DNA from: Deltaproteobacteria bacterium
GTDB taxonomy: Bacteria; Desulfobacterota; Binatia; DP-6
DNA length: 64,000 nt
Reading direction: 5' to 3'
NCBI GenBank assembly: GCA_005879585.1
Contig: VBKG01000312.1
Location: 4,400-68,399 of the forward strand
Part shown: positions 15,342 to 63,591 of the stretch, piece by piece
Position numbering within the stretch: position 1 is the stretch's first letter
How the letters are laid out: every line of letters begins with the position of its first letter
Notes under the pieces: generated by a model
Databases searched by the model: none
What the model saw: the letters and a program-made list of their open reading frames with translations, nothing else
What the model was told of the DNA's origin: nothing
Program-made: the position numbers and the translations under genes

Positions 15342-16677
15342 ATGGCGGTGGGTCGAACGGTCGGTCGCAACGAGCCGTGCCCGTGCGGAAGCGGCAGGAA
15401 GCACAAGCGGTGCTGTCTCGCCGCCGGCGTGGAGATCGACGGCGGCGTGGGCGGACTTCCGCGGCCTGGAGGCCCACGAGCCGACCCCGTCCGACGAATC
15501 GGAGTTCGAGCAGCTCTTCATCCCGTGGCTCGTCTTCAACTGGACGGCCGACCCGGACGACGCCGAGACTCCGGACGACTGGCCCGACAGGCCGCTCGCG
15601 CTCGCCTGCCTGGAGCGGGAGCCCTCCCGATTCGACACGTTCGCGCGCCGCTTCCTCGAGGTTGCATGCGCGCGGCCCTACAGCTTCTACGTCGTCACCC
15701 GGGTAGAGCGGGGCCGGAGCCTCGGGCTGCGGGACGTCATCACGGGACGGGAGTTCGACGTCCTCGAACGCCAGGCGACGGCGCAGGCAGAGGCGGGCCT
15801 TCTCCTCTTCACCCGCGTCGTGCCGCTCGACGGCGCTGCCATCATGGTCGGTGGCGCGCCGCTGCTGATACCGCCGACCTACCGCCTGCGGCTGATCGAG
15901 CTCCGCGAGGACATGGCCGCGGGTGGCATGCCGGACGAGAGCGCCTTGCACGACTGGGACATCGTGCTCCGGGAGACCTACTTCGGGATCAAGCACGAGG
16001 TGTACCACCCGCGCCCGCCGGAGCTTCGCAACACCGACGGCGAGCCGCTCCTCCCGACCACGCTCCACTTCGTGCTGGCCTGCTCGCCGCGCGAGGCCTT
16101 CGATCGCCTCAAGTCCCTCGCCCTCGAGGCGTCCGATGAAGAGCTGCTCACCGATTCCACCCGCGATCCGGCGGGCGAGCTGCGCGCCGTGCGGTTCCCC
16201 TGGCTCAAGCGGGGCAACGCGCAGCACCGGAGCTGGGACAACACGATCATGGGGCACATCGCCATCGACGCGAGCGCTCTCGTGGTCGAGGTGAACTCCG
16301 AGCGGCGCGCGCGCGAGGTCCGCGCCGAGGTGGAGAAGCGGCTCGGCGACCTCGCGGTACTGCAGACGAGCGTCGCTGAGCCGCTGGCCCCCCAGCTCGA
16401 GGAGGCGCGTGCGGAGCGGGAGCCGAAGGGTCGCCTCGAGGAACCGCCCGAGATGCGCGAGGCGCTGCGACACTTCATCGCCGAGCACTGGGAGAGCTGG
16501 CTCGACGAGAAGGTCCCGGCGCTCCGCTTCGAGACCCCGCGCGAGGCGGTGCGGAGTCCGGAGGGTCGAGAGCGGCTGGAGGCGCTGCTCGCCCAGTTCG
16601 AGTGGCAGGGCAGGCGCGCTCCCGAGCCCGAGCTCGCACCCGACGTCGCGGCCCTGCGGGCACGGCTGGGGCTGTAG
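15342..16677 (+). CDS. SEC-C motif protein, apparently frameshifted (+1) after the SEC-C motif
   Basis: Strong RBS GGAGGAGGAAGGG before ATG 15342; N-terminal [13 protein letters not shown] in frame 0; protein-like sequence then continues only in frame +1 from about 15440 to 16677, with no start codon in that frame before 15820. Confidence 0.6.
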
Positions 16678-16689
16678 CTCCGGGGGGAC

Positions 16690-17110
16690 GTCGGGCGCGC
16701 GCCGGTTCCGCACACGCCGGCCTGGACCCTGGTGCGTGGCGACGACAGTGCAGCGCTCCTGCGTCGAGGCCAGCGCCTTGTGCACCTCGCGCGGCGTCGT
16801 GAGCACCCGGGCATGATATCTGTCGATCATGCCGATGGGCGGCGACGCGTGCGGCCGCGGCGCGCGCCTCGGTCGCGAGCTGGCTCGGGCTCGCCGCCCA
16901 TGCCGACGCGTTTCGGCTTTCGCGGGCGATCTTCGCTGCCCGGGATGTTCGCAACGTCGGCAAGCGGCTCCTCGTCGCCCGGCTTCGCCATGAACCGCGA
17001 GCATGCCATGGTCCTCGACGTGGCGCGGAAAGCCCTGCCCGTGCGGATCATCGATGAGCGTCCCGTGAGGCCGGCGGTGGGCAGATGGCCCAGGAGGTCG
17101 CGCGCGTTCG
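16690..17110 (-). pseudogene. Decayed partial copy of the IS200-like transposase
   Basis: Minus strand encodes ..EDHGMLAVHGEAG..PPIGMIDRYHARVLTTPREVHKALA, paralleling QDDHVHLIAEAEH..WDDRYHARALATPREVHNALA of the intact copy; about 85% DNA identity at 16770-16830 vs 17340-17400. Confidence 0.5.
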
Positions 17111-17129: not shown

Positions 17130-17801
17130 TCATCCCCTCTTTGGCCGCCCGTCCGCGACGATCAGCCCGTGTCGCTGCCAACCGATCCGGGCGAGCCAGG
17201 TATGCGCGACTGCGACAGGCCGCGGCCCGCTTTGGTCCGCCGACCGCGGCGGGCGCCAGCCGGCAAACCAGGGAGCTGAAGAGCATGGATCGATATCGGC
17301 TCCGGTGTGGCCGTGTCGCCGGAAGTTCAGCAGCACATAGGCGAGCGCGTTGTGCACCTCGCGGGGCGTCGCGAGCGCCCGGGCGTGATACCTGTCGTCC
17401 CAGACTCTTCCGCGCCGGCCGAGAGCGCGGTTTATCGCGTGGGCAAGGCGGATCGCCAGGCCGCGGACGCCGCTCGCGAGCGCCCGCGTGTGCTCGGCCT
17501 CGGCGATCAGATGGACGTGGTCGTCCTGGACTGAAAATTCGACGATCCGGAAGTCGGCGTGTGAGGAGACGGCGAGCGCGCGGCGGACGGATGGGAACAC
17601 CCGGTCGCACCGAAGGCAGCGGATGGCTGTGACCGCGCGCAGCGTCACGTGCACGGGATGGGTGGCGACATGCTGAGGCCGACCCCGATGCGGCACCCCA
17701 GGCCGGCGTCCGGGCGTCCGTTTCCGGCCGGCACCGGGGCGGCGCCCGCCCCACGTGCGGGCGAGGATCGCGAGAGTGAGTTGAGCGGGACGCCGGGCCA
17801 T
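17130..17801 (-). CDS. IS200/IS605-family Y1 (HuH) transposase, long form (COG1943 / RAYT-like)
   Basis: 223 aa; HuH motif DDHVHLIAEAEH and catalytic-Tyr region WDDRYHARAL; AT-rich promoter patch upstream. Confidence 0.8.
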   Translation of the reverse strand: MARRPAQLTLAILARTWGGRRPGAGRKRTPGRRPGVPHRGRPQHVATHPVHVTLRAVTAIRCLRCDRVFPSVRRALAVSSHADFRIVEFSVQDDHVHLIAEAEHTRALASGVRGLAIRLAHAINRALGRRGRVWDDRYHARALATPREVHNALAYVLLNFRRHGHTGADIDPCSSAPWFAGWRPPRSADQSGPRPVAVAHTWLARIGWQRHGLIVADGRPKRG

Positions 17802-30013: not shown

Positions 30014-31534
30014 ATGAACGGCGGCACGAGCCGGCGGGCGTTGCTGTTCGTCGCGTTGATCGGTTTCGCGGTCGGCCTCGCGGTGAGCGTCCGCTTCGAT
30101 CTCTTTCCGGCCAGCCAGGCGATCAACCTCTTCGGTGGCGGGGAGAAGGGCGGCGCCGAGGAGTCACCGACGGGCGCGCCGCCCGCGGTCACACTCCCCG
30201 ACTTCGCCGGCCTCGCGGAGCATCTCTCCCCCTCCGTCGTCAACATCTCGAGCACGCAGGAGGTGAAGGGCGGGCCGAGTCTCGGCATCCCGGGCGGACC
30301 CGGTGGCGGTGGCGGAGAGGGTGATCCGTTCCACGAGTTCTTCGAACCGTTCGAGAAGTTCTTCGGACAGCCGCGGCGACCCTACAAGGCGAAGAGCCTC
30401 GGGTCGGGCTTCATCATCGATACCAAGGGTTACATCCTCACCAACAACCACGTCGTCGAGAACGCGGACGAGATCGTCGTCAAGCTGTTGACCGGCAAGG
30501 AGTTCAAGGCCAAGGTCGTCGGCCGCGACCCGAAGACGGACATCGCGCTCATCGAGATTCACGGCGCGTCGGACCTGACCCCCGTGGTGCTCGGCGACTC
30601 CGACGGTCTCAAGGTCGGTCAGTGGGTGGTGGCCATCGGCAACCCCTTCGGCCTCGAGAACACCGTGACGGCGGGCATCGTCAGTGCGCTCGGCCGGCAC
30701 ATCAACCAGGGGCCGTACGACAACTTCATCCAGACCGACGCGGCCATCAATCCGGGAAACTCCGGCGGACCTCTCATCAACACGCGGGGCGAGGTGGTGG
30801 GCATCAACACCGCGATCTTCAGCCGCGGCGGCGGCAACATCGGCATCGGCTTCGCGATCCCCATCAGCCTGACCAAGGAGATCGTGCCGCAGCTGAAGGA
30901 GAAGGGGCACGTGACGCGGGGCTGGCTCGGCGTCATGATCCAGAAGGTCACGCCGGACATCGCGGACTCGCTCGGGCTGCCGAGCGCCAAGGGCGCGCTC
31001 GTCGCGGACGTCGTGAAGGAAGGACCCGCCGAGGCTGCCGGCATCAAGCAGGGCGACGTGATCATCGAGTACGACGGCAAGCCGGTGACCGACTCCGCCG
31101 AGCTACCGCTGCTCGTGGCGCGAACCCCTGTCGGCAAGACCGTCAAGCTGAAGGCGATCCGCGACAAGAGCGAGCAGAACTTCACCATCAAGATCGCGGA
31201 GCTGAAGGAAGAGGAGACCGCGCAGGCGGGGACCGGCACCGCCGAGGATCTCGGCCTGACCGTGCAGACGCTCACGCCGGAGGTGGCCGAGAACCTCGGC
31301 CTCGACCGCAGCCTGAAGGGCGTCATCGTCACGCAGGTCGACGCAGGCGGCCCCGCCGCCGACGCCGGCCTCCGGCGCGGCGACGTCATCCTCGAGGTCA
31401 ACCGCACCCCCGTGAAGGACGTCGACGCCTACCGCAAGGGCCTCAAGTCTTCCGGCAAGGGCAAGAGCGTCCTCTTCCTCGTCCGCCGCGGCGACAACAC
31501 GATCTTCCTCGCGGTCAAGCCGTCGTCGGGGTAG
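30014..31534 (+). CDS. degP: Periplasmic serine endoprotease DegP/HtrA (trypsin + 2 PDZ)
   Basis: GNSGGPL catalytic serine motif, two PDZ domains, signal peptide. Confidence 0.9.
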   Translation: MNGGTSRRALLFVALIGFAVGLAVSVRFDLFPASQAINLFGGGEKGGAEESPTGAPPAVTLPDFAGLAEHLSPSVVNISSTQEVKGGPSLGIPGGPGGGGGEGDPFHEFFEPFEKFFGQPRRPYKAKSLGSGFIIDTKGYILTNNHVVENADEIVVKLLTGKEFKAKVVGRDPKTDIALIEIHGASDLTPVVLGDSDGLKVGQWVVAIGNPFGLENTVTAGIVSALGRHINQGPYDNFIQTDAAINPGNSGGPLINTRGEVVGINTAIFSRGGGNIGIGFAIPISLTKEIVPQLKEKGHVTRGWLGVMIQKVTPDIADSLGLPSAKGALVADVVKEGPAEAAGIKQGDVIIEYDGKPVTDSAELPLLVARTPVGKTVKLKAIRDKSEQNFTIKIAELKEEETAQAGTGTAEDLGLTVQTLTPEVAENLGLDRSLKGVIVTQVDAGGPAADAGLRRGDVILEVNRTPVKDVDAYRKGLKSSGKGKSVLFLVRRGDNTIFLAVKPSSG

Positions 31535-31705
31535 CGCGTGCGGCGCCGGAGTGCCGTGCGCGGGAGCGGGGGCACCGGCTCGGCTCCCGGTCCTGGCCGT
31601 AAGCGCGCGGACGAGAATGCGGCGTCCCACCGAATGCCGGTGTCGGTGCGTGGCGCGGCGACGCCGTGGAAGGCGGGACGGGGTGCCGCCGCGGCGACCT
31701 CCGCA

Positions 31706-31799
31706 GCCTCCGCACGCGCCTGCAGCTGCGGGGGGACGTTGCAGCTTCGAGGCGTGCGTGAGGCGAGGACCGGGAGCCGCGGCGGCACCCCGTCCCGCC
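31706..31799 (+). repeat. Copy A of a roughly 95-nt conserved structured intergenic element (candidate ncRNA / 3'UTR element)
   Basis: About 75% identical to 53290-53386, same orientation; contains CGGGGGGACG and GAGGACCGG blocks; complementary arms CGCACGCGCC / GGCGTGCGTG. Confidence 0.55.
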
Positions 31800-31835
31800 A
31801 CCCCGCCGCGATCAAGCGGCGCGCCTGACGACGTC

Positions 31836-32849
31836 GTGCTCATTCTCGGCATCGAGAGCTCGTGCGACGACTCCGCGGCCGCCGTGCTCGACGGCGGCAC
31901 GCTGCGCTCGTCGGTGGTCTCGTCGCAGGACGCGGTCCATGGGCCGTACGGCGGCGTGGTGCCCGAGCTCGCCTCGCGCCATCACGTGCGCAACATGCTG
32001 CCGGTGATCGACGCGGCCCTGTCGCGCGCCGCCGTCGATCTCGATGCCGTCGACGGGATCGCGGTGACGTGCGGTCCCGGGCTCATCGGCTCGCTCCTCG
32101 TGGGGCTGTCGGTCGCGAAGGGAATCGCGCAGGCACGTCGTCTTCCGCTGGTCGGCGTGAACCACCTGGAGGGCCATCTGCTCGCCGCCAACCTCGACCG
32201 GCCGCCCGACGACCCGATCCCGTTTCCCTTCCTCGGCCTGATCGTCTCCGGTGGCCACACGGGCCTCTATCTCGCGCGCGGCGCAGGGGATTATCGCTGC
32301 CTTGGCCGGACGCGCGACGACGCCGTCGGCGAGGCGTTCGACAAGGTCGCGAAGCTCCTGGGTCTCGGCTACCCGGGCGGGCCGGCGATCCAGCGGCTCG
32401 CCGAGCGCGGCAACCCGGGGGCGGTCCGCTTGCCGCGCGCGCGCCTGAAGCGCGGACGGTTCGACTTCAGCTTCAGTGGCTTCAAGACCGCGGTCTGGCA
32501 GCGCGTGCACGACGAGCCGCCGGCTCCCGACGCTCTTCCCGACCTCGCCGCGAGCGTGCAGGAGGCGCTCGTCGACATGCTCGTCGGCACGACCGTCGAA
32601 GCGCTCGAAGAGACGGGCGTGGCTCGTCTTGTCGTCTCGGGTGGCGTGTCGGCCAACCGCCGGTTGCGGGCGCGGATGGCGGACGCGGGCAGCGAGCTCG
32701 GCGTCGACGTGGTGTTCCCGCGCTTCGAGCTCTGCACCGACAATGCCGCCATGATCGCGCTCGGCGGCGCGCGCCGGCTCGAGGCGGGGGAGGACGACGG
32801 CCTCGCGATTGGCGCCGAGGCCGACTTGCCGCTCGGCGCCGCCGGGTGA
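31836..32849 (+). CDS. tsaD: tRNA N6-adenosine threonylcarbamoyltransferase
   Basis: Kae1/TsaD family (GIESSCDD, metal-binding His pair); GTG 31836. Confidence 0.9.
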   Translation: MLILGIESSCDDSAAAVLDGGTLRSSVVSSQDAVHGPYGGVVPELASRHHVRNMLPVIDAALSRAAVDLDAVDGIAVTCGPGLIGSLLVGLSVAKGIAQARRLPLVGVNHLEGHLLAANLDRPPDDPIPFPFLGLIVSGGHTGLYLARGAGDYRCLGRTRDDAVGEAFDKVAKLLGLGYPGGPAIQRLAERGNPGAVRLPRARLKRGRFDFSFSGFKTAVWQRVHDEPPAPDALPDLAASVQEALVDMLVGTTVEALEETGVARLVVSGGVSANRRLRARMADAGSELGVDVVFPRFELCTDNAAMIALGGARRLEAGEDDGLAIGAEADLPLGAAG

Positions 32850-40862: not shown

Positions 40863-41810
40863 ATGGAGCTCGGACTGCTGCGCCTCGCCACGCTCCTCTA
40901 CCTCGGGGCGACGTTCGACGCGCTCGCGGGCATCGCGATGCAGCGCGAGCTGCCACGCTGGCTGCTTCCCCGGCTGCTGCTCGGCGGACTCGCCGTGCAT
41001 GGCGCCGCCATCATCCTGCGGTCCGCGGCGGCAGGACACATCGCGGTCACGACCTTCGCCGAGGCCCTGTCGTTTCTGGCAGTGGTGCTGGTGGCGATCT
41101 TCCTGGCGGTCCAGGCCCGCCGGCCGCTCGTGGCCCTCGGGGCGGTGGTGAGCCCGCTCGCCTTCGGCCTCGTGCTCGCTGCCGACGCCGCGTACAGCGG
41201 CGCGCGGCCGCTGCCCCCGGTCCTGCACAGTGCCTGGCTCCCGGTGCACGTCGTGCTCGCGACCCTCGGCGACGCCGTCTTCGCGCTCGCCTTCAGCGTC
41301 GTGCTCGCTGCCGACGCCGCGTACAGCGGCGCGCGGCCGCTGCCCCCGGTCCTGCACAGTGCCTGGCTCCCGGTGCACGTCGTGCTCGCGACCCTCGGCG
41401 ACGCCGTCTTCGCGCTCGCCTTCAGCGCGAGCCTCCTCTACCTGATCCAGGAGCGGCGTCTGAAGACGCACCGGGGCCGCGGCGTCCTGCGCCATCTGCC
41501 GTCGCTGGAGACGCTCGACCGGGTGAACTACGCGTGCCTCGTCTGGGGTCTCGTGCTGCTGACGCTCGGCATCATGAGCGGCATCGTCTGGGCGCACGAG
41601 GCGTGGGGTCGATCCTGGTCCACCGACCCGAAGCTCGTGTTCTCGCTTCTCACCTGGGCCGTGTACGTCGTCCTCCTGCAGGGCCGGATGACGGCCGGGT
41701 GGCGTGGACGCTGGGCGGCGACGCTCACGATCGCGGGCTTCGCCGTGATCGTCCTGTCCCTCGTCAGCGTCAATGTGCTCGCCCTCGGCAATCACGGGAA
41801 GGCGTTCTAG
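40863..41810 (+). CDS. Cytochrome c assembly protein, CcsA/ResC/HemX-like (WWD domain)
   Basis: WWD motif IVWAHEAWGRSWSTDPK, multiple TM helices; carries an internal 129-bp perfect tandem duplication. Confidence 0.8.
   Translation: MELGLLRLATLLYLGATFDALAGIAMQRELPRWLLPRLLLGGLAVHGAAIILRSAAAGHIAVTTFAEALSFLAVVLVAIFLAVQARRPLVALGAVVSPLAFGLVLAADAAYSGARPLPPVLHSAWLPVHVVLATLGDAVFALAFSVVLAADAAYSGARPLPPVLHSAWLPVHVVLATLGDAVFALAFSASLLYLIQERRLKTHRGRGVLRHLPSLETLDRVNYACLVWGLVLLTLGIMSGIVWAHEAWGRSWSTDPKLVFSLLTWAVYVVLLQGRMTAGWRGRWAATLTIAGFAVIVLSLVSVNVLALGNHGKAF
41170..41427 (+). repeat. Perfect 2 x 129-bp in-frame tandem duplication inside the ccsA-like gene
   Basis: 41170-41298 is identical to 41299-41427; duplicates 43 aa VLAADAAYSGARPLPPVLHSAWLPVHVVLATLGDAVFALAFS. 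Confidence 0.9.
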
Positions 41811-45625: not shown

Positions 45626-45671
45626 CGTGAGCGCGAGCGAAGGATATTCATGAGCGCGAGCGAAGGATATT
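45626..45671 (+). repeat. 2 x 23-bp tandem duplication of the hemB translation-initiation region
   Basis: GTGAGCGCGAGCGAAGGATATTC / ATGAGCGCGAGCGAAGGATATTG then ATGAGCCGC of hemB; creates two 7-8-codon mini-ORFs whose TGA stops nest into the next start. Confidence 0.8.
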
Positions 45672-46650
45672 GATGAGCCGCTTCCCCGCCTATCGCCCGC
45701 GGCGGCTCCGCCGCAGCGAGGCGCTCCGCCGTCTCGTTCGCGAGACCCGCGTCGTCACGGAGCAGCTCGTCCAGCCGCTCTTCGTCGTACCGGGCGACGG
45801 CGTCGAGCGAGCGGTCGAGTCGATGCCGGGCGTGGCGCAGCGCTCGGTCGACCGCACGGCCGAGGAATGCCGGCGGCTGGCCGACGTCGGCGTCCCGGCG
45901 GTGCTGCTCTTCGGCATCCCGGAGGAGAAGGACGCGCGGGGCCGCGGCGCGACCGACCCGGGCGGCATCATCCCGCGCGCGCTCCACGCGGTCCGCCGGG
46001 CCACCCCGGGCCTGGTCCTCATCACCGACGTCTGTCTCTGCGAGTACACCGATCACGGCCACTGCGGGGTCGTCCGCGAGGGCGACGTCGACAACGACGC
46101 CACACTCGAGCTGCTCGCGGCCGAGGCGCTGGCGCACGCGCGGGCCGGCGCCGATGTCATCGCGCCGTCGGACATGATGGACGGCCGCGTCGGTGCCATC
46201 CGTGGCGCGCTCGACGCCGCCGGCTTCTCGCATCTTCCCATCATGTCGTACGCCGCGAAGTTCGCGTCCGCGCTGTACGGCCCGTTTCGCGATGCTGCCG
46301 AGTCGACACCGGCCTTCGGCGACCGCCGCTCCTACCAGATGGACCCGGCCAACGCGGAGGAAGCACTGCGGGAAGTCGCGCTCGACGTCGAGGAGGGCGC
46401 CGACGTCGTGATGGTGAAGCCTGCGCTCCCGTATCTCGACGTCGTCCGCCGCGTGAAGGAGCGGTTCGGGTATCCCGTCGCGGCCTACCAGGTGAGCGGT
46501 GAGTACGCGATGGTGAAGGCCGCTGCCGCGCGCGGCTGGCTCGACGAGGCGCGCGTCGTCGACGAGAGTCTGCTGGCGATCAAGCGCGCCGGCGCCGACG
46601 TCATCATCACGTACTTCGCGAAGGACGTCGCCGCCCGGAGGCGGGCGTGA
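45670..46650 (+). CDS. hemB: Porphobilinogen synthase (delta-aminolevulinate dehydratase)
   Basis: Conserved ALAD active site ([12 protein letters not shown] zinc-type Cys cluster). Confidence 0.9.
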
Positions 46651-51525: not shown

Positions 51526-53243
51526 GCCGTCCCGCGGTCGACCGACGGCCGGGTCTCATCGGCCCCGCGCTGGTGCTCGTCGTCGCCGTCTTCGCCGCGT
51601 TCGCGCCGACCCTGCAGAACGGCTTCGTCCTGTGGGACGACGACATGATCCTCACCGACAACACCGACTTCCGCGGCCTGTCGCCGAGCCACCTCCGCTG
51701 GATGTTCACGACGTTTCTCGGCGGGCAGTACCAGCCGCTCACCTGGATGAGCTTCGCCGTCGATAATGCCCTCTGGGGCATGAGCGCCGCCGGCTACCAT
51801 CTGACCAGTCTCGCACTGCACGTCGCGAACGCGGTGCTCGTCTACATCCTCATCCGGACGCTCCTCGCGCGGACGGCGGTGGGTTCGCGGGCGCTGCACG
51901 CGGCCGCGATCGCGGGCGCGCTCGCGTTCGCGATCCATCCGTTGCGCGTCGAATCGGTGGCGTGGGCGACGGCCCGCCGCGACGTGCTCTCCGGCCTCTT
52001 CTATCTCCTGACGATCCTCACCTACCTCCGGATGGCCTACGAGCGCGACCGCGGCGGTGGGTGGTCGCCGTGGTTCGTCGCGTCGCTCGCCTGCTTCACG
52101 CTGTCGCTCCTCGCGAAGACGTGGGGCGTGACGCTGCCGTTCGTGCTGCTCGCGCTCGACGTGTACCCGCTCCGCCGATGGTCGCGCGGCGCGCTCGCGG
52201 AGAAGGCGGCGTACGGTGTGGTCGCGGCCGCCGGCGTGATCGTCACGCTTCTGATGCTCCGCCACTTCTCGGACGTGAAGAGCCTCGCGCAGCACGGCCT
52301 CTTCGCGCGCGCCGCGCAGGCGGCGTACGGCCTCTGCTTCTACGCGTGGAAAACCGTCGTCCCGCTCAACCTCTCGCCGCTCTACATGATCGAGCCGACG
52401 CTCGACCCGTTCCGGCCGCGGTACGTGGCCTGCGCACTTGCGGTGCTCGTGACCGGCACGGCGCTCGTCGCGCTCCGTCGTCGCGTTCCCTGGGCGCTTG
52501 CCGCGGCTGCCTGCTACGCGGTCGTCGTGGCGCCGATGCTCGGCGTCATGCAGACCGGGCCGCAGATCGCCGCCGACCGCTACACGTACCTCGCCTGTCT
52601 CCCATGGGCGGTGCTCGCCGCCGCGGCGCTTCATCGCTGGCCGCGCTTCTTCCCCCTGGCAGCCGCGGCACTGGTCGTGCTCGGCGTGCTCACGTGGCGG
52701 CAGACGACGATCTGGAAGGACACGCCGGCGCTCTGGGAGCATGCGCTCCGGGTCGACCCGGACGACTACTTCGCGCACCTGAACCTCGGCTGGGAGCGGC
52801 AGGTGCACGGCGACCTCGAGGGCGCCTACCGCCGGTACGACGAGGCGCTCCGCATCAACCCGAAGTTCACGCTCGCGCTCAACAACCGCGGCAACGTCTC
52901 GCAGGCGCGCGGCAACTACGACGCCGCGATCGCGGATTTCACCGCGGCGATCGAAGCCAACCCGCAGTACGCGTCGCCGTACATGAACCGCGGCACGCTA
53001 CGGCTCGCGCAGGAGGACCTCGACGGCGCGCTCGCCGACCTGAACGAGGCGGTGCGCCTGGATCCGGAGGACGGCCGCAACTACAACAACCGGGCGCTGG
53101 CGCGACAGGCCAAGGGGGACGTGACCGGGGCCCTCGCTGATTACCGCGAGGCGCTGGCGCGCTTCCCACCGGGCACGCCTGGCCGCCCAATGATCGAGCA
53201 GAACCTGGCCGACCTCCAGGCGGCGGTGAGGGCGAGACACTAG
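51522..53243 (+). CDS. Polytopic membrane protein with PMT/ArnT-like N-domain and C-terminal TPR repeats (putative glycosyltransferase)
   Basis: GTG start overlaps the acetyltransferase TGA; about 10 TM helices then 5-6 TPR units. Confidence 0.8.
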
Positions 53244-53289
53244 TTGCGAGCGTCGGTCCGCGGGCGCGGGGCGCCGGCAGCGCGACCCG

Positions 53290-53386
53290 CAGCTCCCGCG
53301 CACGCACGTAGCTTCGGGGGGACGCCACTTTTACGAGGTGCGCGTGGAGCGAGGACCGGAGCGCAGCCGGCGCCCCGTGCCCGCGG
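53290..53386 (+). repeat. Copy B of the roughly 95-nt conserved structured intergenic element
   Basis: Aligns with 31706-31799; sits between the convergent TPR gene and the radical-SAM gene. Confidence 0.55.
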
Positions 53387-53426
53387 ACCGACGCGGCCGC
53401 CCGTCTCGCCGACGTCGATGCGAGCG

Positions 53427-54749
53427 TCAGGCCGGGAGGTCGTTCTTCGGGAGCATCGAGGCGGACGCACGGCGGTCGCGGCGGTGGTCGATCGCGTGGC
53501 CGTTTTCGGCGGTCTCGGGCGCGACCGTGTCGGCCCATTCCTCGAAGCCGACGTGCTGCGCGAGATCCGCCCAGCCGTAGCGGTAGTCGCAGCGGGCGCA
53601 GTAGGGAAACGACTTCTCGACGGAGTCGTCGTTCACCGTCCGCCGGAGCGCCTGATACTTCTCGCTGTTCCAGATGTCGCGGAAAGCGGTGCTGTCGTCG
53701 TCGTACACTTTGCCCATGCTGATCGCTTCCCAGGCGCGATAGCAGGGGAGGACGCGGCCGTCGGTGTCGATCTTCACGAAGCGCCACGGTGCGCGGCAGC
53801 GTGACGGCTGCTGGCGTTTCGGCTGCTCGTCGTGCACGGCGGGGGGCAGGTTGACGCGCAGGCGCGGGTAGCGGGCTGCCACGCGGCGTGCCTCGGTGAA
53901 GATGCGGCTCATGAGGTCCTGGTGGAAGTAGAGGCTCTCCTGCGGGTCGATGCCGTTGCAGACCGCGAGGTAGCCGCAGTCCATGCGGTCGATGCCCATC
54001 TCGCCCCAGCGCTCGACGGCGTCCGGCAGTTCCTCGACGTTGGACCGCATGAGCGCGTAACGGATGATGGTGCGCGGCTCGCGCTTCCCCTCTTCCTCGC
54101 GCACGCGTAGCACCATCCGGATCTTTTCCAGGATTGTGTCGAGCTTCGCATTCACGCGGAGTCGCTCGACCGTCGCAGGATGGAATCCGTCGACGGAGAA
54201 GCCGTGCGTCGTGATGAGACCTTCGCGGACGATCGTCCGCACGCGGTCTTCGCGCACCAGCATGCCGTTCGACAGCACCCAGGTGGCGACGCGGTGCCGG
54301 CGCGCGACGCGCAGCAGGTCCTCGAGCCCCTTGTGGAGATACGGCTCGCCGCCGGAGCAGATGCTCACGAGCCGCGCGGTAGGGAAGAGCTGGCGCGCGA
54401 CGCGCTCGAAGTTCTCGAGCGAGATGCGCTTCGCGCCCGGAGTCTCGTAGTCGACGCAGAACGTGCAGGCGAGGTTGCACGCCTTGGTGAGGACGATGTC
54501 GACGTTCTGGGGCAACGAGCGGACGACCGTCGACTGGAGGCGGAACTCGACCTCGTTGAGGCCGGTGTTCAGCGCCTGGCGTGCCGTGAAGCGTCGCATG
54601 GGACGTCGGTCGAGCGCCGACGCTAGCGCCGGCCGTCTCGGACGGTCAAGCAAAAGGGTGGCCACGAATGGCCCGGTGCGGGACGGATCGGCGCCCCCCC
54701 GTGGTCGCCATGCCTTGCAGCTGCGCAAGGCGTTCGCTGTGCCTTGCAT
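53427..54749 (-). CDS. Radical SAM / SPASM-domain protein
   Basis: CNLACTFC (CxxxCxxC) and a C-terminal Cys-rich CARCDYRYGW; start at 54749 (MQGT, SD AGGCGGG) or 54599 (MRRF). Confidence 0.85.
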   Translation of the reverse strand: MQGTANALRSCKAWRPRGGADPSRTGPFVATLLLDRPRRPALASALDRRPMRRFTARQALNTGLNEVEFRLQSTVVRSLPQNVDIVLTKACNLACTFCVDYETPGAKRISLENFERVARQLFPTARLVSICSGGEPYLHKGLEDLLRVARRHRVATWVLSNGMLVREDRVRTIVREGLITTHGFSVDGFHPATVERLRVNAKLDTILEKIRMVLRVREEEGKREPRTIIRYALMRSNVEELPDAVERWGEMGIDRMDCGYLAVCNGIDPQESLYFHQDLMSRIFTEARRVAARYPRLRVNLPPAVHDEQPKRQQPSRCRAPWRFVKIDTDGRVLPCYRAWEAISMGKVYDDDSTAFRDIWNSEKYQALRRTVNDDSVEKSFPYCARCDYRYGWADLAQHVGFEEWADTVAPETAENGHAIDHRRDRRASASMLPKNDLPA

Positions 54750-60017: not shown

Positions 60018-60930
60018 CAGCGACCTCCGACCGGCGACGGAGCTCCACTCCGTGACCCTGCACGGCCATCGGGTGGGGCTCCGTCTCGCCGGTCACGGGC
60101 CCGTCCTGCTGCTCGTTCACGGGATGGCGAGCAACTCGGAGGCATGGACGCGGGTCAGCTCGCTGCTCGCCGGCGGGTTCGCGATCGTCGCGCCGGACCT
60201 CCTCGGCCACGGGCAGACGGCGCAGCCGGCGGGTGACTATTCGCTGGGCGCGCACGCGACGCTCCTCCGGGATGTTCTCGTCGTCCTCGGGCACGAGCGC
60301 GCCACGGTCGTCGGACACTCGTTCGGCGGCGGCGTGGCCATGCAGTTCGCCTACCAGTTCCCGGAGCTCTGCGAGCGCCTCGTGCTGGTTGGGAGCGGCG
60401 GTCTCGGGCGGGAGGTGAACCTGCTGCTGCGGGCCCTCGCCCTTCCCGGCGCGGAGCACGTGCTCCGGCTCTTCTGTCGCGCGTCGGTGACCGAGGCGGG
60501 CCGCACCGTCGTCGAGTGGGCTCGGCGTGTCGGCTTCGGCCCGACTCCCGCCGCCGAGGAGATCGGCCGCGGCTACAACGCGCTGACCGATCCGTACGGC
60601 CGGACGGCTTTTTTTCGGACGCTCCGTGCCGTGATCGGCGTCGGCGGCCAGAGCATCAGCGCCAACGACCGGTTGCCGCTCGCCGCCGATCTCCCCACCC
60701 TCATCATCTGGGGCGCTCGCGACCCGATCATCCCGGTGCAGCATGCGCAGCGAGCGCATGACGCGATCGCGGGCAGCCGCCTCGAGATCTTCGACGGGGT
60801 CGGCCACTTCCCGCAGTGCGAGGCCCCGGAACGGTTCGCGCGGACGGTCTCGGACTTCGTCGTTTCGACGGAGCCGGCACGTCTGTCGCAGGAGCGCCTC
60901 CGCATGCGCCTGCAGGCCGGCGGACTGTAA
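60007..60930 (+). CDS. Alpha/beta-fold hydrolase
   Basis: Nucleophile elbow GHSFGG, LLLVHGMASNSEAW, C-terminal His region. Confidence 0.85.
   Translation: MLASSDLRPATELHSVTLHGHRVGLRLAGHGPVLLLVHGMASNSEAWTRVSSLLAGGFAIVAPDLLGHGQTAQPAGDYSLGAHATLLRDVLVVLGHERATVVGHSFGGGVAMQFAYQFPELCERLVLVGSGGLGREVNLLLRALALPGAEHVLRLFCRASVTEAGRTVVEWARRVGFGPTPAAEEIGRGYNALTDPYGRTAFFRTLRAVIGVGGQSISANDRLPLAADLPTLIIWGARDPIIPVQHAQRAHDAIAGSRLEIFDGVGHFPQCEAPERFARTVSDFVVSTEPARLSQERLRMRLQAGGL

Positions 60931-62205: not shown

Positions 62206-63591
<1,386 letters not shown>

Follow-up and report, generated by a model that had tools for sequence, protein, structure and literature searches.

A dispersed family of hairpin repeats associated with gene ends in soil Binatia

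Two similar intergenic stretches, hereafter copies A and B, found in a 64-kb window (the whole stretch of DNA analysed, with a G+C content of ~71%), are members of a dispersed family of hairpin repeats of ~135 nt that was previously undescribed. We consider, with a probability of roughly 60%, that these elements are lineage-specific, dispersed, non-coding palindromic repeats of soil Binatia, of the REP/BIME-REPIN kind and with a TRIT-like association with gene ends. The element constitutes a new family and is a member neither of REP, canonical terminators, TRIT or attC, nor of any Rfam family. Over short evolutionary times, sites gain a copy, exchange it for another or lose part of it. Binatia (Binatota) are a globally common, uncultured soil phylum. 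Our literature search found no paper describing such repeats in this phylum, for which this would be the first described repeat family.

Two full copies and one remnant in the window

The original prediction described an element of about 95 nt present twice in the same orientation (31706-31799 and 53290-53386), with an identity of about 75%. Both stretches are indeed present, on the plus strand. Their identity is 71% by global alignment at these coordinates, and the mean column identity reaches 82% by MAFFT over 150 nt. The blocks reported as shared, AGCTKCGGGGGGACG and CGAGGYGYGCGTGRRGCGAGGACCGG, were found in both copies. The second one, of 26 nt, occurs in the 64 kb only at 31748-31773 and 53334-53359, while shuffled sequences give an expectation of 0. 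The inner arms of both copies pair as described, in different but complementary versions. The unit itself had been underestimated, since it is a hairpin of 130-165 nt and not a segment of ~95 nt.

Copy A (31669-31802, plus strand) is a full element of the subtype that we call type I. An inverted repeat search revealed its outer stem, a perfect duplex of 24 bp joining 31672-31695 with 31777-31800. Its inner stem pairs CACGCGC with GTGCGTG, its apex carries the invariant GGGGGGACG (31730-31738, plus strand) and its 3' tail, ACCCCGCCGCG, reaches to ~31812. Folded as RNA, it has a minimum free energy (MFE) of -125 kcal/mol (z = -8.9). Identical copies of this sequence are present in four collected loci (L088, L096, L127 and L069). 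Copy B (53250-53394, plus strand) is a full type II element with arms of 34 nt (53250-53283 with 53361-53394) that are 94% complementary; its MFE as RNA is -122 kcal/mol (z = -8.9). The reverse strands of both copies fold slightly less well than the plus strands.

We searched the whole window, with filters off, using a covariance model (CM R1) built from an alignment of 51 distinct copies. Copy A was found with 126.5 bits (E = 6e-20) and copy B with 122.1 bits (model span 53257-53387), both on the plus strand, while their reverse strands scored only 30 and 25 bits and the top unrelated match in the window 20 bits. This gap between the two strands indicates that the element has a defined strand. 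Hereafter, the strand scored by CM R1, i.e. the plus strand of the window for copies A and B, is called the model strand.

A third, truncated copy lies on the minus strand at ~31556-31629, in the same intergenic region as copy A. It is the 3' half of a type II element (nhmmer match at 31562-31635, model positions 57-129). The description of a twofold element therefore holds for the full copies and has to be completed by this remnant. The remnant begins 21 nt past the stop codon (TAG, 31532-31534) of a degP/degQ-like serine protease gene (30014-31534, plus strand; Pfam Trypsin_2 and two PDZ domains). It faces copy A across a spacer at 31630-31668, an unstranded interval between the two 5' ends, and tsaD follows downstream of the pair (31836-32849, plus strand; orthologues with PF00814 TsaD). 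A comparable spacer of 36 nt separates the members of the orthologous pairs in L083, L093 and L088. One of the inverted repeats found in the window corresponds to this type II remnant paired with copy A. Beyond copies A and B and this remnant, no further copy was found in the window by CM R1 with filters off; a partial motif at 16676 was rejected as a copy.

Number of copies and host range

To find other members of the family, we screened representative genomes with a pattern anchored on the loops. From the 39 loci obtained, 33 were discarded as chance matches in unrelated GC-rich genomes. The six true members belong to the metagenome-assembled genome (MAG) 'Deltaproteobacteria bacterium DP_26' (five copies) and to one uncultured MAG (one copy). 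A scan of metagenomes with a different set of anchors gave 92 loci including ~65 true members, nearly all from soil. In this second pattern the motif GCGAGGAC had been left free, and it is kept by all true members except one (L072). Over all the collected loci, CM R1 identified 93 matches, 76 of them distinct. Three copies are present in this 64-kb window and at least five in the fragmentary MAG DP_26, for about 75 distinct copies overall. All copies with a callable context are intergenic. In public MAGs, the homologues of the neighbouring DegP protein are labelled as DegQ family of Candidatus Binatia, which places the host in the Binatia/Binatota lineage.

These scans and the 76 distinct copies identified with the covariance model support the structured and conserved family that had been proposed. 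The proposal would have lost its basis had only two copies existed, with no compensatory changes in related genomes; instead, many more copies exist and compensatory changes accompany them. The Rfam scan suggested along with it was run on the whole window (Rfam 15) and gave no family match at the gathering thresholds. With an E-value threshold on 31500-31900, only weak matches to miRNA precursors and snoRNAs appeared, far below their gathering scores. Neither did our searches of viral contigs and plasmids detect any match to the element.

Conserved rod and covariation

The consensus of the family is a rod, composed of a long outer stem, conserved internal loops, an inner stem of 12 bp and an apex. 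The apex contains the invariant GGGGGGACG and CGAGG. On the model strand, the internal loops carry GCGAC and CCGCAGC on the 5' side and GCGAGGACCGGGAGC on the 3' side. These unpaired motifs are invariant, while the stems vary and yet remain complementary. The centre and the internal loops are the best-conserved part of the element, the outer stem being more variable.

Across the 76 distinct copies, 97.6% of the alignment cells concerned are standard pairs and double changes occur at 27 of the 38 pairs. None of 500 shuffles reached any of the covariation measures, and when the partner was slid by 1-3 columns only 37-56% of the cells remained paired. Two adjacent pairs of the inner stem are particularly variable, with up to six combinations (CT/AG, TC/GA, CC/GG, TT/AA, GC/GC and CG/CG); no non-standard pair was found at these positions, and two cells are U.G. 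The covariation suspected from copies A and B is therefore confirmed by the pairing rate, by the double changes and by compensated changes in orthologous copies (see below). Covariation alone does not prove that the element acts as an RNA, since REPINs show the same pattern (PMC3116915). We also compared how well a locus's own flanks and the flanks of other loci pair, and found a slight advantage for the former (-21.0 vs. -17.6 kcal/mol, respectively; P = 4e-4). As many of the loci are orthologous, this excess is weak evidence for an extension of the hairpin into locus-specific sequence.

Two subtypes arranged head to head

The outer stem distinguishes two subtypes. In type I it is formed by GGCGGGAAGGGG/CCCCTTCCCGCC (in a fuller form, GGCGGGA(A/C)GGGG...CCCC(T/G)TCCCGCC), with NCCCCGCCGC as 3' tail. 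In type II it is formed by GGGAGCGGGGGC/GCCCCCGCTCCC (in a fuller form, CGCGGGAGCGGGGGCGCCGG...CCGGCGCCCCCGCTCCCGCG). The subtypes occur singly or as a pair of one each, with members 36-110 nt apart and 5' ends always facing. All the 17 distinct pairs associate a type I copy with a non-type I copy (type II or a variant of type II). As the members of a pair always belong to different subtypes, we rejected the hypothesis that pairs are local inverted duplications.

Pairs located between co-directional genes all show the same succession (gene, type II, type I, next gene; 7 out of 7), and in one-sided pairs the copy adjoining the stop codon is each time of type II (7 out of 7). The degP-tsaD spacer of the window contains such a pair, with the minus-strand type II remnant followed by copy A as type I. 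In the near-identical contigs L088, L096 and L137, the type II copy located just after degP on the minus strand is complete. That of L096 has a diverged core, and it forms the same rod (79.8 bits, -112 kcal/mol, z = -7.6).

In one locus (L103), two copies are 1.7 kb apart. A composite transposon was considered for this locus and rejected, because the DNA between the copies reads, from open reading frame translations inspected by eye, like flagellar flgA/flgH and not like a transposase.

Position relative to stop codons

We then looked at the position of the copies relative to genes called by codon-position G+C, a method which recovers degP and the other genes found by homology. For 41 of 72 distinct copies, the stop codon of a gene on the opposite strand lies 4-39 nt (median ~20) from the model 3' end. 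When only unpartnered copies with assessable flanks are considered, the stop codon is on the 3' side alone in 14 cases and on the 5' side alone in one; according to its orthologues, the latter is a gene-calling failure. External gene calls were concordant for L137, L140 and L144. These counts give a rule: a copy follows a stop codon, and its model strand is antisense to the gene concerned. Two convergent genes can each have their own correctly oriented copy (L060, L100 and L102).

In 30 loci, the flanking genes are unrelated housekeeping genes, often the last of an operon. Neighbours include the genes for L17 (rplQ), L31 (rpmE), a release factor, ArgRS, AdoHcyase, DegP and PtsP. One gene upstream of an element (L039, 6166-7263) encodes a TIR domain of the CAP12/Pycsar effector kind and represents a defence-type gene among these housekeeping neighbours.

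The original prediction placed both copies immediately downstream of a plus-strand gene. Copy B does lie 6 nt past the stop codon of the TPR gene (53241-53243) and copy A in the degP-tsaD spacer. By the orientation rule of the family, however, copy B belongs with the minus-strand radical SAM/SPASM gene rather than with the TPR gene. The stop codon of this gene (53427-53429) is at 32 nt from copy B, and the gene was identified by Pfam (53427-54749 as the open reading frame is listed, with homologues of ~390 aa). By the same rule, it is the truncated minus-strand copy, and not copy A, that goes with degP, copy A being the distal partner before tsaD.

No sigma-70-like promoter was detected in a scan around the element. 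A terminator scan around copies A and B gave no terminator-like site and no U-tract on either strand, the flanks beyond the stem being GC-rich whichever strand is read. A 3' UTR structure, an attenuator, a terminator or a small RNA specific to the degP or TPR gene, as first proposed, is thus not supported by an element that is dispersed, inserted, polymorphic, located after unrelated genes and devoid of U-tract and promoter.

A more general role at the 3' end has to be weighed against the repeat-family interpretation. The family could be a dedicated host terminator or 3'-end element, lacking a U-tract, conserved in sequence and kept by selection as for TRIT, whose loops would be bound by a putative factor and whose pairs would act in both directions. 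The narrow position 4-39 nt past stop codons, with a fixed orientation, is what such an element predicts, as are the copies found after operon-terminal genes (e.g. rplQ and rpmE), the separate copies of convergent genes and the invariance of the unpaired motifs. TRIT provides a precedent (PMC3152330), and the window contains another conserved hairpin, a short one, that is also located after stop codons (see below). Fixed position and orientation could indeed reflect host selection for a function rather than an insertion preference, which also counts against the repeat-family interpretation. This possibility nevertheless appears unlikely to us, although it deserves to be kept in mind. The U-tract is absent from both strands and, in co-directional pairs, the second copy has the opposite orientation and follows no gene. 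The turnover of the copies and the strand on which they pair, both described below, also argue against it.

Insertion, replacement and deletion of copies

The degP-tsaD region gives access to the recent history of a pair. In relatives whose DegP is 80-87% identical (L132-L136, L138 and L139), degP and tsaD are only 2-22 nt apart or overlap, and CM R1 found no copy in ~88 kb of the loci of these relatives. The pair is present in relatives with a DegP at least 92% identical (L093, L083, L137 and L096). The empty site in the former indicates that the block of ~290 nt at 31535-31835 is an insertion within a sub-lineage, and this insertion carried no open reading frame. No target-site duplication could be defined at this place, the filled and empty sites being too diverged.

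A deletion then distinguishes the window from contigs that match it without any other difference for more than 300 nt. Relative to L088 (338-400), L096 and L137, 63 nt are missing, with a junction at 31629/31630. This deletion removed the 5' half of the type II copy next to degP. The degP-proximal copy is both decayed in its core and half-deleted in the window, which argues against an essential role of this copy for degP. For the terminator hypothesis, this degenerate stop-proximal copy and the close relatives lacking the element at the same sites are two unfavourable observations.

Replacement was observed after the radical SAM gene. At the same position and in the same orientation, the window has a type II copy, L140 a type I copy and L144 a type I-like copy. 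Relatives at 89% and 81% identity have a type I or type I-like copy; a relative at 79% identity is without a copy.

We also compared the orthologous type I copies of the window, L111, L083 and L093, whose flanks are identical or nearly so. They display five compensated double changes vs. two uncompensated ones. Four of the five compensated changes separate the window from L111, with identical flanks of the element and a TsaD 97% identical between the two. Stepwise compensation is a less likely source of so many coordinated changes in a short time than replacement or conversion by other copies, or than a correction process internal to the palindrome. This suggests that exchange from copy to copy contributes to the pairing being kept.

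In addition, many metagenome contigs end in or at an element: L137 (at 4912), L140 (at 2256), L144 (at 2146), L048, L053, L054, L057, L069, L105, L107 and L126. The element therefore appears to be a practical cause of fragmented assemblies in Binatia.

Strand on which pairing seems to be kept

On the model strand, 48 cells are G.U or U.G vs. 7 that are A.C or C.A (21 vs. 7 when counted by position and type), and the six mismatch variants common to several copies are all G.U. Moreover, for 53 of 62 copies the fold of the model strand is the more stable of the two; the mean difference is 5.7 kcal/mol, part of which reflects the shared consensus. Common mutational biases, namely cytosine deamination on the non-template or leading strand, would be expected to produce the reverse asymmetry. 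Given this excess of G.U and this stability, the strand on which pairing seems to count is the complement of the neighbouring mRNA. Selection for folding on a strand that is not that of the mRNA is not expected from a simple 3' UTR hairpin. The same observation weighs against the terminator hypothesis, for which G.U tolerance sits on the wrong strand, and against the repeat-family interpretation, as the strand apparently selected for folding differs from that of the upstream mRNA.

An RNA transcribed from the model strand would account for this asymmetry. In such a case, the family would consist of independently transcribed small or antisense RNAs of ~140 nt, directed towards the 3' end of the neighbouring gene, and pairs would be divergent genes expressed from the spacer. 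The G.U excess and the greater stability of the model strand agree with this explanation, as do the strong difference in model score between strands (126 vs. 30 bits) and the invariant G-rich apical loop. We nonetheless regard it as very unlikely, because the scan gave no promoter-like sequence, conservation on the 5' side stops with the element and no terminator follows it. Spacers as short as 36 nt would have to accommodate two divergent promoters. Finally, the family comprises numerous diverged copies instead of one or a few conserved genes, and these copies are gained and lost between close relatives.

Other repeats in the window and in the collected loci

A second family of short hairpins was noticed in the window, at 547-571 and 721-745. 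The first one (CGACCCGAGAC-TTC-GTCTCGGGTCG) is located 4 nt past a plus-strand TAA (540-542). The second one is its inverted twin, with a GAA loop, just before a CTA at 752-754 that is a possible minus-strand stop codon. The loop is thus UUC in the sense of each gene, and no U-tract follows. A related short hairpin (CGCGACCCAAGACTTCTTGGGTCGCG) flanks the element in L104. Another GC-rich intergenic repeat (...GGAGCCGCCCGCGGCTTTGCCGCGGGCGAGCGACGGGGTCCGGGGGCATCGGAGCAGCG...) lies ~100-250 nt beyond the 5' side of the element in L113, L109, L044, L049 and L092. This repeat is seen again before the following gene in L113 and in a second locus (L109, L044, L049 and L092), and it is absent from the window.

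The window also contains a tandem repeat at 41155-41427 (period of 129 nt, 2.1 copies, 98% identity), which would represent 43 residues in frame if coding. A direct repeat of 130 nt (60237-60366 and 62273-62402; 89% identity, 2 kb apart) may reflect paralogous genes. Two smaller repeats are a direct repeat of 59 nt at 16767-16825 and 17339-17397 (88% identity, 572 nt apart) and a tandem repeat of 23 nt at 45628-45678 (2.2 copies).

Possible mode of spread and significance

Under the repeat-family interpretation that we favour, copies would spread by a strand-specific step, for which the hairpin of a single strand is required. The folding strand would be the complement of the neighbour's mRNA, on which G.T or G.U is tolerated and A.C is not. 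Recombination between copies, or correction within the palindrome, would help to keep the arms complementary. Once in place, a copy would provide the upstream mRNA with its 3' end, in which it would form a very stable hairpin. This hairpin probably marks or protects the end of the transcript or insulates neighbouring genes, as proposed for REPs and for mycobacterial TRIT.

A candidate enzyme for such a spread was searched for near the copies. Pfam detected no transposase or RAYT in the 30 families of flanking genes, and a tblastn search of 0.73 Mb for IS200 TnpA, a weak test, gave no match. The failure to find any enzyme close to the copies, be it a transposase, a RAYT or another one, counts against the repeat-family interpretation; RAYT genes are present as a single copy per genome.

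A more specific and rather doubtful version of this scheme is that of a strand-specific mobile hairpin. The folded strand, complementary to the mRNA, would propagate or act either as an antisense transcript or as single-stranded DNA processed by a putative enzyme of the HUH or tyrosine kind. Its targets would be the first tens of nucleotides after stop codons, and the type II/type I pair would be the complete unit. If true, this would explain why G.U is preferred over A.C on what looks like the wrong strand, why the asymmetric loops are invariant and why pairs have a fixed polarity.

Whatever its mode of spread, the family has a practical use, as CM R1 can mark the 3' ends of genes and their strand in Binatia genomes. 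With its strict placement after stop codons, its subtypes of fixed polarity and a pairing apparently selected on the complement of the mRNA, the family also lends itself well to the question of whether repeats of this sort are selfish DNA, terminators or a combination of the two.

Comparison with known repeat systems

Several systems with hairpins or palindromes were compared with the element. Retron msr/msd, 6S RNA, attC and CRISPR were rejected on their architecture: the element has many copies and a 3' position, and it has no reverse transcriptase or integrase and no core sites. attC sites (e.g. the Vibrio VCR) are imperfect palindromes of 57-141 nt located directly after open reading frames, with a structure more conserved than the stem sequence. 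They function as a single folded strand, which is the complement of the coding strand. The Binatia element shares the position of the palindrome after an open reading frame, the conservation of structure over stem sequence and a folded strand complementary to the coding strand. Unlike attC, it shows no R''/R' core sites, cassette arrays or integrase, and it lies beside core housekeeping genes and in inverted pairs. Its ends are GGCGGG...CCCGCC or GGGAGC...GCTCCC, which are not those of an attC site.

By analogy, the element could be a site acting at the DNA level, either a hairpin or cruciform bound by gyrase, IHF or polymerase as for BIMEs, or a site recombined by a tyrosine recombinase on one folded strand as for attC. 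The alternation of two types in inverted orientation is BIME-like, the position and folded strand are attC-like, and the conserved unpaired bases, which are asymmetric, point the same way. Such a role seems to us highly improbable, as attC core sites (RYYYAAC/GTTRRRY) are lacking and the vicinity contains syntenic housekeeping genes, with no cassette array or integrase. The insertion between degP and tsaD, for its part, carried no gene.

ERIC/IRU, Correia (CREE), RUP and BOX repeats are imperfect palindromes of ~100-160 nt, found in transcribed intergenic regions and variable between strains, and they can affect the processing and stability of mRNAs. The Binatia element resembles these MITE-like repeats in size, palindromy and variability between strains. 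MITEs have conserved terminal inverted repeats, whereas the outer stem of the element is variable. No terminal inverted repeat with a target duplication could be defined, and no related insertion sequence was seen in the collected loci (Pfam on the flanking genes and the weak tblastn search).

The closest likeness is with REP, BIME and REPIN. REPINs are REP doublets forming hairpins and mobilised by RAYT transposases (PMC3116915, PMC3337134), and compensatory changes keep their hairpin (PMC3116915). Like these repeats, the Binatia elements are extragenic, dispersed imperfect palindromes present in many copies. Distinct types occur in inverted orientation with a short spacer, besides singles and remnants. 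Compensatory changes, gain and loss between relatives and a predicted folding in single-stranded DNA or mRNA are also common to both. The Binatia unit is nevertheless larger (130-165 nt, where a REP measures 20-40 nt and an entire REPIN ~70-110 nt) and, unlike REP, it is best conserved at its centre and internal loops and not at its two ends. REPs have a GTAG-like 5' tetranucleotide, whereas no GTAG/CTAC is conserved at the foot of the Binatia hairpin. The element further differs from REP by the RAYT that our weak test did not find, by its strict distance and orientation relative to stop codons and by its uncultured host phylum. It is therefore not a REP or REPIN as usually defined, i.e. a short palindrome with a 5' tetranucleotide, although inverted pairs of units exist.

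Concerning gene ends, the element is not an intrinsic terminator, defined as a GC-rich hairpin immediately followed by a U-tract. TRIT is a conserved terminator-like stem-loop restricted to Mycobacterium, with a narrow position around -8 relative to the stop codon and mostly bidirectional, for which a protein cofactor was proposed by the authors on the basis of its sequence conservation (PMC3152330). Both are multi-copy stem-loops without a U-tail, conserved in sequence and structure, in a GC-rich host with few canonical terminators and in a narrow position at gene termini. TRIT starts inside the coding sequence, whereas the Binatia element begins 4-39 nt after the stop codon, is strongly strand-asymmetric and is much longer. 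Unlike TRIT, it comprises two subtypes, forms head-to-head pairs and shows insertion and deletion polymorphism. Since position, length, strand asymmetry and host all differ, and with no Rfam match, the Binatia element works at most like TRIT and is not a member of it.
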